Positions 5,602 to 16,480 of a DNA stretch of 32,575 nucleotides are shown here, in pieces. The notes beneath the pieces are model-generated. The model was not told the DNA's origin. It made no database searches and saw only the letters and a program-made list of their open reading frames with translations. The stretch's first letter is position 1. The number at the start of each line of letters is the position of its first letter. Location of the stretch: the IMG/VR virus record IMGVR_UViG_2711768076_000008. The stretch is one strand, 5' to 3'. Both the position numbers and the translations under genes were made by a program. The DNA is from a virus (taxonomy: Duplodnaviria > Heunggongvirae > Uroviricota > Caudoviricetes).

Positions 5602-5697
5602 TAAAAATGATGAGCCGAGACTGTATTTACGGGACGCTGAGAGAATACCATAGAAAAGCTTATCTAACTTAAGTAGAATTGCTGCGGGTGCTTGAGG

Positions 5698-5733
5698 CTA
5701 TCTGCCTCAGGCATGAACACCAAAGGCAGATAG
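5698..5733 (+). promoter_or_regulatory. stable stem-loop in the hok mRNA leader (10-bp perfect stem CTATCTGCCT/AGGCAGATAG)
   Basis: Perfect 10-bp inverted repeat with a 16-nt loop; a mutually exclusive 5-bp hairpin GAGGC/GCCTC (5694-5708) overlaps it. Confidence 0.5.
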
Positions 5734-5854
5734 AGAAAAGCCCCAGTTAACATTACGCGTCCTGCAAGACGCTTAACATTAATCTGAGGCTCAATCTATG
5801 AACGGCAAATCTAGGTTAGCCTCTTACGTGCCGAAAGGCAAGGAGAAGCAGGCT

Positions 5855-6010
5855 ATGAAGCAGCAAAAGGCGATGTTAATCGCCCTGATCGTCATCTGTT
5901 TAACCGTCATAGTGACGGCACTGGTAACGAGGAAAGACCTCTGCGAGGTACGAATCCGAACCGGCCAGACGGAGGTCGCTGTCTTCACAGTCTACGAACC
6001 TGAGGAGTAA
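5855..6010 (+). CDS. hok: Hok/Gef-family type I toxin (51 aa)
   Basis: MKQQKAMLIALIVICLTVIVTALVTRKDLCEVRIRTGQTEVAVFTVYEPEE matches the Hok/Gef fold and is close to the E. coli HokD/RelF sequence as I recall it. AAGGAG SD 9 nt upstream. The in-frame upstream extension (track ORF 5798..6010) is Mok-like. Confidence 0.85.
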   Translation: MKQQKAMLIALIVICLTVIVTALVTRKDLCEVRIRTGQTEVAVFTVYEPEE

Positions 6011-10420: not shown

Positions 10421-10496
10421 GGCCCTTTAGCTCAGTGGTGAGAGCGAGCGACTCATAATCGCCAGGTCGCTGGTTCAAATCCAGCAAGGGCCACCA
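10421..10496 (+). tRNA. tRNA with CAU anticodon (Ile2/lysidine type or Met)
   Basis: 7-bp acceptor stem GGCCCTT/AAGGGCC, perfect T arm (GCTGG-TTCAAAT-CCAGC), anticodon loop CTCATAA, CCA end encoded. Resembles the E. coli ileX-type tRNA as I recall it. Confidence 0.8.
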
Positions 10497-10497
10497 A

Positions 10498-10574
10498 CCG
10501 CCACTAGCTCATCAGGAAAGAGCGTCAACCCTTTAAGTTGAGTGTGCGAGGTTCGAGTCCCCGGTGGCGGTCCA
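10498..10574 (+). tRNA. tRNA-like gene, anticodon ambiguous (loop CCTTTAA reads UUU by position but has C at position 33)
   Basis: Acceptor stem CCGCCAC/GTGGCGG, D stem GCTC/GAGC, anticodon stem TCAAC/GTTGA, T stem with one A-C mismatch, CCA encoded. The arms resemble a tRNA-Arg(UCU) scaffold with an altered loop. Confidence 0.55.
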
Positions 10575-10576
10575 GT

Positions 10577-10652
<76 letters not shown>

Positions 10653-10655
10653 TAT

Positions 10656-10730
<75 letters not shown>

Positions 10731-12825: not shown

Positions 12826-13380
12826 ATGAATTATCCAACTATCGTTGACGGCATTGACTTCAAAGAACTGGTTTTTATTACCAACAATGACCCTGTCACC
12901 GATTCATTTATGGTGGCGAAAGCATTTCGTAAGCGACATGACAACGTTGTGCGTGATGTAGAAAGAACTATCCCTGCTTGTCCTGAAGAGTTTGATACAA
13001 AACTCAATTTTGAGGTTTGCTATAAAAACAATGAGTTACAGAATGGTAAGCCACAAAAATTCTATCGGCTACGCAAGGATGGGTTGATGCTTTTGGTTAT
13101 GTCCTACACCAAAAAAGAAGCAATGCGTATCAAAATTGCTTACATCAACGCATTCAACTGGATGTACGCCATGCTTCAGGTTGGTCATCGTCAATTTGAA
13201 GAAGAGCGAAACGCCGTAATGCTGGAGTACATGAAAGAAAAGGATGTCGCCAGCATGTCTGGCCGTCTGCTCAATCGCTGGGGAAGAACGAAAAAACCTC
13301 AATTGCTTGCAAAGCTGGAACGTCTGGAGAAGCAAGGACAGTTTTTATTACCGGGATTCGATAAAGGCATTCAAGCCTGA
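12826..13380 (+). CDS. Rha-family phage regulatory protein
   Basis: N-terminus LVFITNNDPVTDSFMVAKAFRKRHDNVVRDVERTI fits the Rha-family signature as I recall it. Confidence 0.65.
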   Translation: MNYPTIVDGIDFKELVFITNNDPVTDSFMVAKAFRKRHDNVVRDVERTIPACPEEFDTKLNFEVCYKNNELQNGKPQKFYRLRKDGLMLLVMSYTKKEAMRIKIAYINAFNWMYAMLQVGHRQFEEERNAVMLEYMKEKDVASMSGRLLNRWGRTKKPQLLAKLERLEKQGQFLLPGFDKGIQA

Positions 13381-13697
13381 CACATCATGCGCTGTATCGT
13401 CGCCGTATTCCCGTATTAACAGAGACCGTAGCCCGACGGGGAACTCCTTCTGCGCGAGTGTGCGGGAATAATCAAAAACGATGCACACCGGGTTTTTACC
13501 GCGTTTATGGTTCGCGGGTTTGTCCCTCATGCTCGCCAGTCCTGTGCGGGGGTGGAAGAAACAGGACACTTACACAGATTCTTGTGGGCACGATGCTATG
13601 CCTTTCTGGATTATCCCGATGCCATTCATGCAAGGCGTTGTATCAGACGTTCGTCAGAGCTGTCAGGCTGACGGGTCCTCCCGGTGGGGTGGCCTGC

Positions 13698-13717
13698 CAC
13701 GGGGCGGGAGCGTCGCG
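13698..13717. other. candidate cos site (cosN-like cohesive-end sequence)
   Basis: ACGGGGCGGGAGCGTCGCGG resembles the lambda cosN region ACGGGGCGGCGACCTCGCGG (recalled from memory), about 170 bp upstream of the small terminase gene. Confidence 0.5.
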
Positions 13718-13886
13718 GAAAAAGGCTAGTTTTTGCATTTTTATCGGCCACCATCATCTTTGCATCTTATTGATTATTAATGGTTATTTTTTTTTGCATG
13801 TCGAATTGAGTGTTTTTTGTTCGACATCGAACGCGTTTTCTTAAAGTTGTTCGCACGATGCATATTTAAAGCTCTCCGGAGGAAAT

Positions 13887-14378
13887 ATGGATCATGAGTT
13901 GAAAAACCTGGTGCTGAATATTAATCAACTGGCGGCTTTATCTGGTCTGCACCGCCAGACTGTCGTGGCAAGACTGAAAAACATTCGTCCCGCTGGTGGA
14001 CATGACAAACTCAAGCTATACCGGTTGACCGATATTCTGACTGAATTTATGGGGTTACCACCGCCGGTTGCTGAGGGCGAAATGGATCCACATGAACGCA
14101 AAGCCTGGTATCAGTCTGAACGTGAGCGTCTTAAGTTCGAACAGGAAACGGCACAACTCATTCCGGCCAGTGATGTCAGACGGGAGTTTGCCATCTGGGC
14201 AAAAGCGGTCGTGCAGGTGCTGGAGACATTACCGGATATTCTTGAACGTGACTGCGGTCTGCAGCCTGCCGCTGTGAGCCGTGTTCAGTCCATTATTGAT
14301 GATCTGCGCGATCAGATAGCCCTGCGGGTGACTGAAGCAGGTGCGGATGATGAGGAGGAATTACAGCAGGAGGAGTAA
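13887..14378 (+). CDS. terminase small subunit (Nu1-like, HTH DNA-binding)
   Basis: 163 aa ORF immediately upstream of and overlapping the large terminase; N-terminal HTH-like region; GGAGG SD. Confidence 0.7.
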   Translation: MDHELKNLVLNINQLAALSGLHRQTVVARLKNIRPAGGHDKLKLYRLTDILTEFMGLPPPVAEGEMDPHERKAWYQSERERLKFEQETAQLIPASDVRREFAIWAKAVVQVLETLPDILERDCGLQPAAVSRVQSIIDDLRDQIALRVTEAGADDEEELQQEE

Positions 14379-16480
14379 TGCTGAATCAGGAAACCGCAAA
14401 GGCAGCACGAACCGATTCAGGTTATATCCTTCGCGCACCGAGACGAATGCGGGTTGCTGATGCCGTTGCTCAGTATATGCGGGTGCCCATGGGGGCAGGG
14501 AACTCAGTCCCGTGGGATCCGCTGGTGGCACCGTATGTTATTGAGCCTATGAACTGCCTGGCCTCGCGTGAATACGACGCAGTGATATTTGTTGGCCCGG
14601 CACGAACCGGCAAGACTATCGGCCTGATTGACGGCTGGGTGATTTACAACGTGATTTGCGATCCTGCTGATATGCTGATCATTCAGATGACGGAGGAAAA
14701 AGCCCGCGAACACTCCAAAAAACGACTCGCCAGAACGTTTCGCGTCAGCCCGGAAGTGGTCAGTCGCCTGAGTCCGAACAAAAATGACAACAACGTTTAT
14801 GACAGAACATTCCTTGCTGGTAACTACCTGAAAATCGGCTGGCCGTCAGTCAATATCATGTCCTCATCAGATTATAAATGCGTGGCGCTGACGGATTATG
14901 ACCGTTTTCCGGAAGATATTGATGGCGAGGGGGATGCCTTCTCTCTTGCCTCAAAACGTACCACCACATTTATGTCCAGTGGTATGACGCTGGTGGAGAG
15001 TTCCCCCGGCAGGGATGTGAAGGATGTGAAATGGCGACGGACTTCACCGCATGAGGCTCCACCAACCACGGGGATACTGTCGCTCTATAACCGTGGCGAT
15101 CGCCGTCGCTGGTACTGGCCCTGTCCACACTGTGGTGAGTATTTTCAGCCCTGCGGCGATGTGGTTGCTGGTTTCCGTGATATTGCCGATCCCGTGCTGG
15201 CAAGTGAGGCGGCTTATATTCAGTGCCCTTCCTGTTCAGGACGGATTATGCCTGAACAAAAACGTGAGCTGAACGGACGTGGGGTCTGGTTGCGGGATGG
15301 TGAATCCATCAATGCGGATGGCAGTCGTTATGGTGATCCCCGACGCTCACGTATTGCGTCATTCTGGATGGAGGGTCCGGCAGCTGCTTACCAGACACTC
15401 TCGCAACTCGTTTACAAACTGCTTACTGCAGAACAGGAATACGAGACAACCGGAAGTGAAGAAACACTCAGGGCGGTTATCAATACCGACTGGGGATTAC
15501 CTTATCTTCCCCGCGCCAGCATGGAGCAACGAAAAAGTGAACTGCTTGAGCAGCGGGCAGAGCCAGTTCCTTCCCGCAGTGTGCCTGATGGCGTTAATTT
15601 CCTTGTGGCGACAGTGGATGTGCAGGCGGGACGTCATCGCCGTTTTGTGGTTCAGGTAACGGGCTATGGCAGCCGTGGCGAACGCTGGATTATTGATCGT
15701 TACAACATCACGCAGTCATTGCGCGGTGACAGCGACGGGGAGAGCCAGCGAATTGATCCGGCCAGCTATCCGGAAGACTGGGATGTCCTGCTGACGGATG
15801 TTTTTCATAAAAGCTGGCCGCTGGCCTCCGATCCTTCTCAACAAATGCGACTGATGGCAATGGCGGTGGACTCCGGCGGTGAAGACGGGGTCACTGATAA
15901 TGCCTATAAATTCTGGCGTCGTTGCCGTCGTGATGGCCTTGGTAAACGTATTTACCTGTTTAAGGGCGACAGCATCCGGCGCGCAAAACTGATCACTCGT
16001 ACATTCCCTGATAACACCGGACGAACGGGCCGACGGGCGCAGGCCTCAGGTGATGTGCCGCTCTGGCTTCTTCAGACGGATGCACTGAAAGACCGGGTGA
16101 ATAACGCGTTATGGCGTGACTCGCCAGGTCCCGGCTATGTGCATTTCCCTGACTGGCTGGGGAGCTGGTTTTACGACGAACTGACGTATGAAGAGCGGAG
16201 CAGTGACGGGAAATGGAGTAAGCCTGGTCGCGGTGCCAACGAAGCTTTTGACCTGATGGTGTATGCCGAGGCTCTGGTCATTCTGCATGGATACGAAAAG
16301 ATCCGCTGGCCGGATGCACCGGAGTGGGCGAGCCGGGAAACCTGGCTGGAGTGTGTCCAGGACAGTACCGAACCGTCATCCTCACCGGAACCGGTATCCA
16401 CGCCTGTTAAAAAACAAAAACGGAAGAAAACAGTAACTGACGATGTTAACCCCTGGCTGACTTCCGGAGGATGGTTATGA
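14378..16480 (+). CDS. terminase large subunit (GpA family)
   Basis: 700 aa with Walker A-like GPARTGKT; size and position match lambda gpA. Confidence 0.85.
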   Translation: MLNQETAKAARTDSGYILRAPRRMRVADAVAQYMRVPMGAGNSVPWDPLVAPYVIEPMNCLASREYDAVIFVGPARTGKTIGLIDGWVIYNVICDPADMLIIQMTEEKAREHSKKRLARTFRVSPEVVSRLSPNKNDNNVYDRTFLAGNYLKIGWPSVNIMSSSDYKCVALTDYDRFPEDIDGEGDAFSLASKRTTTFMSSGMTLVESSPGRDVKDVKWRRTSPHEAPPTTGILSLYNRGDRRRWYWPCPHCGEYFQPCGDVVAGFRDIADPVLASEAAYIQCPSCSGRIMPEQKRELNGRGVWLRDGESINADGSRYGDPRRSRIASFWMEGPAAAYQTLSQLVYKLLTAEQEYETTGSEETLRAVINTDWGLPYLPRASMEQRKSELLEQRAEPVPSRSVPDGVNFLVATVDVQAGRHRRFVVQVTGYGSRGERWIIDRYNITQSLRGDSDGESQRIDPASYPEDWDVLLTDVFHKSWPLASDPSQQMRLMAMAVDSGGEDGVTDNAYKFWRRCRRDGLGKRIYLFKGDSIRRAKLITRTFPDNTGRTGRRAQASGDVPLWLLQTDALKDRVNNALWRDSPGPGYVHFPDWLGSWFYDELTYEERSSDGKWSKPGRGANEAFDLMVYAEALVILHGYEKIRWPDAPEWASRETWLECVQDSTEPSSSPEPVSTPVKKQKRKKTVTDDVNPWLTSGGWL

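Follow-up and report, generated by a model that had tools for sequence, protein, structure and literature searches.

The region from position 13673 to 13886 of the window (the whole 32,575-nucleotide stretch of DNA analysed here) is very probably the cos site of an apparently intact lambdoid prophage, with cosQ, cosN, an A/T-tract spacer and cosB following one another in the same order as in lambda. This reading is adopted because the matches to cosQ and cosN, the conservation of the region, the families of the adjacent terminase proteins and the deposited genome ends of related phages concur. The initial annotation had proposed a lambda-like cos site upstream of the small terminase (TerS) gene, with predicted cohesive ends of about 12 nt, and this core proposal is upheld, as cosQ, the CG dinucleotides beside the nicks, a conserved 64-bp block, the terminases, the record ends of relatives and the position of the site all agree with it.

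The late-gene order of the window is that of a standard lambdoid prophage. A CI-like repressor, a replication region, RusA and a Q antiterminator are encoded ahead of four tRNA genes; these are followed by lysozyme, Rz and a Rha-like protein, then by a 506-bp gap, and then by TerS and the large terminase (TerL). Beyond TerL are a W-like protein, a lambda-family portal, a ClpP-capsid fusion and a cement protein, and then the lambda-like tail genes Z, U, V, G, H, L, K, I and J. The gap extends from the end of the Rha-like open reading frame at 13380 to the TerS start codon at 13887, and the cos candidate is located in it, between Rz-type lysis genes and terminase genes, as in lambda. The initial annotation had described a non-coding stretch of about 500 bp before TerS, which is accurate: the gap measures 506 bp, and no coding signature was found in its open reading frames. 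One of these, at 13481-13729, runs across cos (mEp460 gp59, PHROG 17397) and was rejected as a gene: of 39 unique homologues, 16 have a broken frame, and variable columns number 17, 14 and 15 at the three codon positions. A search of the gap against Rfam returned no RNA family, a promoter search returned no promoter-like sites, and a terminator search returned one terminator-like hairpin, which is the R1 element described below and does not exceed chance expectation. An inverted repeat over the TerS start codon (13854-13867 and 13883-13896) was treated as fortuitous because it is weakened in PhiR40_1 and in mEp460-type sequences.

cosQ, cosN and their conservation

The heptamer GGGTCCT is encoded on the + strand at 13673-13679 and is identical to cosQ of lambda (48473-48479 of NC_001416), the packaging-termination signal; its function is taken over from lambda (PMC4669245). 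The window holds a single copy of GGGTCCT, as against ~3.3 expected by chance. The initial annotation had made no mention of cosQ, the most telling feature of the region. Downstream, cosN, a nicking site of ~22 bp, occupies 13697-13718 on the + strand and reads CCACG/GGGCGGGAGCGT/CGCGG, with slashes at the predicted nicks. Alignment with the lambda cos region, part of the check suggested with the initial annotation, gave identity at 7 of 7 positions of cosQ and at 16 of 20 positions of cosN (ACGGGGCGGGAGCGTCGCGG at 13699-13718 compared with ACGGGGCGGCGACCTCGCGG of NC_001416), and a distance from cosQ to the predicted N1 nick of 22 bp in the window and 23 bp in lambda. ACGGGGCGGGAGCGTCGCGG is the best match to lambda cosN in the window; the motif had been recognised correctly, although it had been placed at 13698-13717, 1 nt from its actual position. 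Taken alone, 16 of 20 is modestly unusual, and scores of at least 16 were reached in 5 of 200 first-order Markov shuffles of the window. The joint pattern GGGTCCT-N18-26-ACGGGGCGG, on the other hand, has a single occurrence in the window and was absent from all 100 shuffles; on sequence grounds, the cosN match is decisive only once the cosQ context is added. The papers retrieved by a full-text literature search for GGGCGGGAGCG all dealt with G-quadruplexes or other unrelated subjects.

The predicted 5' cohesive end is the 12-nt sequence GGGCGGGAGCGT at 13702-13713 on the + strand, bounded by N1 at 13701/13702 on the top strand and N2 at 13713/13714 on the bottom strand. It matches the lambda cohesive end GGGCGGCGACCT at 8 of 12 positions; bp 1-6 are identical, and the differences are at bp 7, 8, 9 and 11. 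Natural variation of lambda-like cosN falls in the bp 7-12 half of the cohesive end, with N15 varying at bp 9 and 12 and Gifsy-1 at bp 8, 9 and 11, and cosQ and the nick-flanking CG dinucleotides are constant among these variants (PMC4669245). The changes in the cosN variants of Gifsy-1, N15 and phi-D326 are confined to bp 7-12, as in the window (PMC4669245); unlike those variants, cosN of the window is also changed at bp 7. The CG dinucleotides beside both predicted nicks are retained in the window (CCACG/GGGCGG...GCGT/CGCGG), and all 14 phages of an alignment that includes lambda have the same right flank, CGCGG. The nick contexts, ACG/G and CCGCG/A on the bottom strand, are spaced exactly as in lambda. 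From these conserved flanks we infer the nick positions and the 12-nt overhang.

Comparison with relatives outlined the core of the site. Among 73 unique relatives, comprising window-type and mEp460-type sequences, the 64 bp at 13672-13735 are nearly invariant, the majority base reaching at least 97% at almost every position, and the flanks on both sides are variable. Within this block, cosQ is invariant in the 73 relatives, as is cosN with the exception of position 12 of the cohesive end. The limits of the block also appear in individual phages: phi458 and cdtI have an unrelated left flank with the junction exactly at cosQ, and in mEp460-type phages and cdtI the sequence to the right of GGCTAGTTTTT is unrelated.

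Loci were also gathered together with a TerS alignment, 45 from bacterial genomes (one genome per species) and 80 from IMG/VR, and in more than 100 of them the TerS start codon follows the cosQ-cosN pair at a constant distance. The distance from GGGCGG to the TerS start is 185-187 nt in the window and the mEp460 group and 129 nt in the mEp213 group. Fifty-two diverse loci with this TerS family, from Escherichia, Citrobacter, Klebsiella, Enterobacter, Rahnella, Sodalis, Pasteurella, Mannheimia and named phages (Enterobacterales and Pasteurellaceae), were compared, and 50 of them contain cosQ (GGGTCCT or GGTACTC), 20-23 bp, 12 nt and CGCGG in succession. The 12-nt ends of the 52 loci conserve GGGCGG as their left half and vary in their right half, which is the pattern given by Feiss et al. 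for lambda-like cosN (PMC4669245). When the 241 bp at 13660-13900 were used as a query, matches were obtained in 2168 of 5426 complete E. coli genomes (~40%), ~550 of these at no less than 95% identity. In those E. coli records cos is unannotated, and TerS is labelled only 'DUF1441 family protein'.

Terminases and deposited genome ends of related phages

The adjacent terminase genes are of the lambda type, consisting of a Nu1-related TerS and a gpA-family TerL. TerS (13887-14378, + strand) is a protein of 163 amino acids that belongs to Pfam DUF1441 (4.6e-44), outside the Nu1 family of lambda, and matches PHROG 141, 'terminase small subunit', at 2.7e-77. Residues 8-159 of the window TerS match phrog_57, the family of lambda Nu1, at 8.3e-9, and the reverse search with lambda Nu1 finds phrog_141, the family of the window TerS, at 5.6e-8; because of these reciprocal PHROG matches, TerS is classed as a remote homologue of Nu1. 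A profile comparison aligned TerS and Nu1 collinearly, though with low probability (E 0.0034, probability 9.5%). This low-confidence alignment pairs NINQLAALSGLHRQTV with the Nu1 N-terminal segment KKQLADIFGASIRTI, which we take to be the helix-turn-helix of Nu1. A profile search of PDB sequences with TerS found nothing meaningful, and a single-sequence structure model of TerS (pLDDT 53) was too poor for use.

TerL (14378-16480, + strand), which is predicted to nick cosN, is a 700-amino-acid protein of the gpA family, with Pfam matches to GpA_ATPase (PF05876, 8.5e-72) and GpA_nuclease (PF20454, 3.3e-85). It is 24% identical to lambda gpA in a collinear alignment over ~620 amino acids, and its identity is 87.6-87.8% to TerL of cdtI and Tritos, 79% to that of LLS and 71% to that of yong2. 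Characterised members of the gpA family give 5' cohesive ends, and TerL type correlates with end type (PMC12315714).

The genome ends of related phages, as deposited, coincide with the predicted nicks. The records of cdtI (AB285204/NC_009514) and Tritos (OV696610) open with GGGCGGGAGCGTCGCGGAAAAAGGCTAGTTTTT, identical to 13702-13734 of the window; the last bases of the cdtI record are GGGTCCTTCCGGTGGGGTGGCCTGCCACG (...GCCACG), which equals window 13673-13701 with 1 mismatch. The record of Hafnia phage yong2 opens at CGCGG, equivalent to window position 13714, and closes with the 12 nt; its boundary corresponds to predicted N2 and lies exactly 12 nt past the start of cdtI and Tritos in the aligned frame. 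Three independent deposits (cdtI, Tritos and yong2) were thus opened at one of the two predicted nicks. A feature of the LLS record, '5' extended single-strand cohesive site GGGCGGCGCGCT', marks 12 nt at the aligned position; its authors inferred this end from TerL type and from Feiss's analysis of mEp213, and the same sequence is given as the putative cos of LLS and mEp213 (PMC12315714, citing Vahanian et al. 2017). The ends of the cdtI, Tritos and yong2 records may likewise rest on analogy; the Tritos publication is silent on termini. The record ends are strong circumstantial evidence for the predicted nicks, short of proof. A scan of IMG/VR for a 28-mer found no contigs ending at cos and only copies embedded in prophages.

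These data also bear on the possibility that the site is a genuine cos whose nicks have a stagger other than 12 nt or fall at bonds other than those cut in lambda, so that the ends would be 9-11 nt long or shifted. Such an arrangement is known in the wider family, as Cr-LKS3, with a TerS of the same family (37% identity), has been reported to carry a 9-nt 5' end, GGGCTCGCG (PMC9303873), and between GGGCGG and CGCGGAAAAAGG the phages CP-1639, VT1-Sakai and mEp460_4F5 have 2, 1 and 3 fewer nucleotides, respectively. Moreover, the first base of the mEp460_4F5 record (LR595868.1) falls 5 nt left of predicted N1, and the right half of its cosN is 3 nt short. The mEp460_4F5 paper gives no account of how the ends were set, and the boundary of that record is considered unreliable because another, lambda-like record of the study is likewise interrupted within cosN and carries a base change, in a cos that is otherwise identical to lambda; this suggests that the mEp460_4F5 boundary is an assembly artefact, a break at the physical end rather than a mapped terminus. 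Against displaced or shorter ends stand the lambda-like spacing of the nick contexts in the window and the starts of cdtI and Tritos at N1 and of yong2 at N2, 12 nt apart, and we regard displaced or shorter ends as improbable.

Proposed cosB elements and the linked TerS domain

With 13702 numbered as bp 1 of the predicted left end, the segment that follows cosN is an I2-like A/T-tract spacer at 13719-13747 (+ strand), with A5 at 13719-13723 and T5 at 13730-13734 and 13738-13742. Up to 13735 the spacer is invariant in the 73 relatives and identical in cdtI and Tritos. In lambda, I2 is a poly-dA/poly-dT segment between cosN and cosB (PMC4856287), and the spacer of the window presumably has a role in bending.

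In lambda, phi80, 21 and Gifsy-1, cosB has the order R3-I1-R2(inverted)-R1 (PMC9026076), and the cosB region of the window displays the same order and orientation at approximately the same positions. The R3-like putative TerS element CCACCATCATC lies at 13748-13758 (+ strand, bp 47-57); it is invariant among window-type relatives and occupies the same position as CATCATCATC in mEp213 and LLS, Fels-1, VT1-Sakai, Chris1 and many genome loci. The I1-like putative IHF site CATCTTATTGATT, at 13763-13775 on the - strand (bp 62-74), agrees with YAANNNNTTGATW at 12 of 13 positions and is the sole match in cosB to the IHF consensus with at most one mismatch. An IHF-like site in the same orientation and position (bp 62-64) is present in 34 of the 52 related loci, 12 of them perfect, and both cosB types keep the ATTGAT core unchanged. 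The R2-like element is inverted and extends over 13796-13808 (- strand, ~bp 95-107), with the core ATGTCGAA at 13798-13805 (bp 97-104); GATGTCGAA or GATGATGAT is found at this place in relatives, and the core is conserved in window-type relatives with a single exception, which reads ATGTCTAA. The R1-like element TGTTCGACATCGAAC, at 13818-13832 (+ strand, ~bp 117-131), has the core TTCGACAT at 13820-13827 (bp 119-126); it is invariant among window-type relatives, and TGTTC(A/G)NCATC is present at the equivalent place in all relatives. The R elements share just a short core (~TTCRNCATC), and their limits represent our own reading.

ATGTCGAA and TTCGACAT form a perfect 8-nt inverted repeat with 14 nt between its arms and 22 bp from centre to centre. 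The initial annotation had reported this repeat at 13808-13837; the repeat is real, and its correct position is 10 nt further left, at 13798-13827. The accompanying suggestion that it is a cosB-type element gains support, as a putative assignment, from the location of the arms at the R2 and R1 places of relatives, from their conservation (apart from ATGTCTAA) and from their inclusion in the TerS-linked cassette described below. The TTTTTGCAT direct repeats, for which a role as terminase or IHF binding elements had been envisaged, do not sustain that role. TTTTTGCAT has copies at 13730 and 13791, with a further TTTGCAT at 13759; the second TTTTTGCAT copy is mostly TTTTTGTAT in the closest relatives, and the copy at 13759 varies. 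The repeats were rejected as protein-binding sites because even close relatives do not conserve them, and they are better read as T-tracts; the IHF site is likely to be CATCTTATTGATT at 13763-13775 rather than TTTTTGCAT.

Between R1 and TerS is an additional conserved segment of 32 bp, CTTAAAGTTGTTCGCACGATGCATATTTAAAG (13840-13871, + strand), which contains an R1-like TTGTTCG and may represent a fourth TerS site. It is kept in window-type and mEp460-type loci and missing from mEp213-type loci, in which R1 abuts the start codon. Compared with lambda, the cos of the window has an identical cosQ, an A/T-tract spacer, R3 at ~bp 47-57, an IHF-like site, an inverted R2 and a direct R1. It differs in the R elements themselves, which in lambda have the unrelated sequence CGTTTCC..., in the distance from R2 to R1 (22 bp as against ~47 bp) and in the extra 32-bp segment before the start codon. 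The layout is also complex when set against the simple, single-R cosB of N15. The binding of TerS and IHF and the role of each subsite are proposed by analogy.

Three groups of relatives illustrate how cosB varies. In LLS and mEp213, which share with the window a Gifsy-2-like fused protease-capsid head module, TerS is 62-63% and TerL 79% identical to the window proteins; cosQ and the spacer are the same, and the elements read CATCATCATC for R3, GATGTCGAA for R2 and TTCACCATC for R1. The mEp460-type phages (mEp460, Ayreon, 569R4, phi458 and mEp460_4F5) have the same cosQ, cosN and spacer as the window, a TerL that is 99% identical, a TerS that is identical over residues 69-163, and a cosB of the same length and layout; the cosB sequences differ, with R3 TTCGTCATCAC, R2 GGTGTCGAT and R1 TTCATCAC. 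The authors of the Ayreon study had merely assumed cos to lie within ~1 kb upstream of TerS (PMC5764929). In cdtI, TerS is just 42% identical to that of the window, and cosB is unrelated after GGCTAGTTTTT, with GGCGGCGGCAAC and TTTTCACCTG repeats and a perfect IHF consensus.

The differences between the window and the mEp460 type extend into TerS. When the window was compared with phage 569R4, identity was 94-100% outside 13736-14090 and 52-78% inside this interval. TerS of the mEp460 type and of the window differ at 21 amino acids, all of which are in residues 1-68 and none in residues 69-163; the differences in the predicted recognition helix include V26A, V27A and K31Q. Codons 1-68 (13887-14090) encode the N-terminal domain of TerS, which is predicted to determine specificity. 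It is proposed that cosB (13736-13886) and residues 1-68 of TerS would make up one exchangeable specificity cassette; this covariation of cosB with the TerS N-terminus is the strongest functional argument for the putative cosB elements. The cosQ-cosN-spacer core is common, base for base, to carriers of the mEp460-type and cdtI-type cassettes, with cdtI holding a third and more distant cassette on the same core. In lambda and phage 21, cosB and the N-terminus of Nu1 jointly determine packaging specificity (PMC4669245). There is about an even chance that the core carries at least three natural cassettes (window-type, mEp460-type and cdtI-type) and that the window represents a distinct, undescribed packaging specificity, in the manner of lambda and 21.

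Probable use of the site, proposed packaging and meaning

A second alternative is that the site is a fossil, conserved by descent in a prophage that no longer yields packaged DNA. Many lambdoid prophages of E. coli are defective, the visible part of the element is only 32.5 kb, and the spacer between I1 and R2 contains a T9 run (13786-13794) in the window and a run of 10 nt in all relatives compared, so that the I1-R2 spacing is 1 bp shorter. Set against this, all of the late genes examined are full length, namely Q, the lysis genes, TerS, TerL, the portal, the protease-capsid fusion and the tail genes Z through J. The phages PhiR40.1, PhiR47.1 and PhiR55.1 form plaques (bioRxiv 10.1101/2025.11.03.685801), and the window is 100% identical to them in TerS, 99.1-99.4% identical in TerL and identical in all putative subsites. 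Their cos regions are 98.5-98.9% identical to that of the window, which departs from them at one base (13864, A in the window and G in these phages) and in the T-run that is one base shorter. Viability is plausible on this comparison, and an unused site is considered unlikely. The weakest alternative, a fortuitous likeness to lambda cosN in a phage that begins headful (pac) packaging elsewhere, could draw on the shuffles that equalled the cosN score and on a Pfam label for TerS of just DUF1441, but it is scarcely credible given the joint cosQ-cosN pattern that no shuffle produced, the fixed distance of this pair from the TerS start in more than 100 loci, its near invariance between variable flanks, a TerL of the gpA type and not of the P22, Sf6 or T4 type, and related phage records that open at the predicted cos; insofar as sequence allows a judgement, headful packaging is excluded.

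With the region read as a cos in use, packaging would proceed as follows, on the model of lambda. TerS dimers would use an N-terminal helix-turn-helix to contact the R-like elements of cosB, and IHF would bend the DNA between R3 and the inverted R2; the bound TerS and the bent DNA would then place the gpA-type TerL on cosN. TerL is predicted to nick the top strand at 13701/13702 and the bottom strand 12 nt to the right, and the staggered nicks would generate 5'-protruding cohesive ends, GGGCGGGAGCGT. Packaging would run rightward into the head genes and stop at the next cos of the concatemer, where cosQ, GGGTCCT, would be needed for terminal nicking.

The site belongs to the well-known lambda-like cos family. 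The deposited ends of cdtI and Tritos already imply its cosN, and the cosB variant of the window appears not to have been described. Cassette exchange around an unchanging cosQ-cosN core is a neat case, provided by nature, of swapped packaging specificity and not a new principle. If the proposal of several natural cassettes is true, common E. coli prophages would provide a natural set for the evolution of TerS-cosB specificity, and the same prophages would be suited to asking which co-resident prophages or satellites can cross-package. The present assignment gives genome ends and a packaging direction to a prophage type with matches in ~40% of complete E. coli genomes, and it can be used for delimiting and orienting such prophages, for reading virome assemblies that are broken here and for predicting elements with shared cohesive ends.

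Length variation in cosN and cosB

Within the window, a 32-bp segment, CTTAAAGTTGTTCGCACGATGCATATTTAAAG (13840-13871, plus strand), lies between R1, a predicted TerS-binding element of cosB, and the TerS ribosome-binding site. This segment, which contains an R1-like TTGTTCG, is kept in the loci with window-type and mEp460-type versions of cosB and TerS; it is absent from mEp213-type loci, in which R1 directly adjoins the start codon.

The length of the cosN right half, measured as the distance from GGGCGG (the left half of the predicted cohesive end) to CGCGGAAAAAGG, also differs between relatives, with three bases missing at the ends of the mEp460_4F5 record LR595868.1 (L001 and L002), two in CP-1639 (L013) and one in VT1-Sakai (L014). 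The shorter right halves indicate either that the lineage has cohesive ends of variable length, of which Cr-LKS3, with 9 nt reported, is an example (PMC9303873), or that in LR595868.1 the missing bases reflect faulty assembly at the physical ends. The spacer from the IHF-like site to R2, a second predicted TerS-binding element, is 1 bp shorter in the window than in its closest relatives; a nine-T homopolymer is present at 13786-13794, where these relatives carry TTTGTTTTTT or ten T, and the nine-T run of the window could come from slippage or be a sequencing error.

An open reading frame across cosQ and cosN

The predicted cosQ and cosN are both covered by an 82-aa ORF (13481-13729, plus strand), which is assigned to PHROG 17397 and annotated in mEp460 as the hypothetical protein gp59. 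Disruptions of the ORF occur in 16 of the 39 unique homologues, while a codon-position bias was not seen at its variable sites. Because of these two results, the ORF is probably an annotation artefact.

Other elements of the prophage

Rfam places a sok antitoxin RNA, part of a toxin-antitoxin locus of the hok/sok type, in the early region of the prophage (5686-5860, plus strand; 111.7 bits). Four tRNA genes (Met-CAT, Lys-TTT, Thr-TGT and Gly-TCC; 10421-10730, plus strand) are clustered, with the Q antiterminator region on one side and the lysis genes on the other.

The region upstream of cosQ

In lambda (L004, about 48441-48460) and in many prophages of the window's terminase family, drawn from several genera (L012, L013, L014, L026, L027, L029, L031, L041-L046 and L049), cosQ is preceded at a distance of 5-8 bp by a palindrome, ATGATAATCATTATCAT, and the left flanks adjoining this palindrome are otherwise unrelated among these carriers. 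The palindrome agrees at approximately 16 of 19 positions with the Fur-box consensus, GATAATGATAATCATTATC. The window lacks the palindrome and holds GTCAGGCTGAC (13662-13672) in the same place.

Farther upstream, in the left part of the gap that precedes TerS (13380-13567), neither strand gave a coding signal. At 85-97% identity, this stretch matches the right-end region of many phages, lambda-like and Stx-converting, whose terminase is a different one, of the lambda Nu1 type; the region upstream of cos is therefore a mosaic unit that is exchanged separately.
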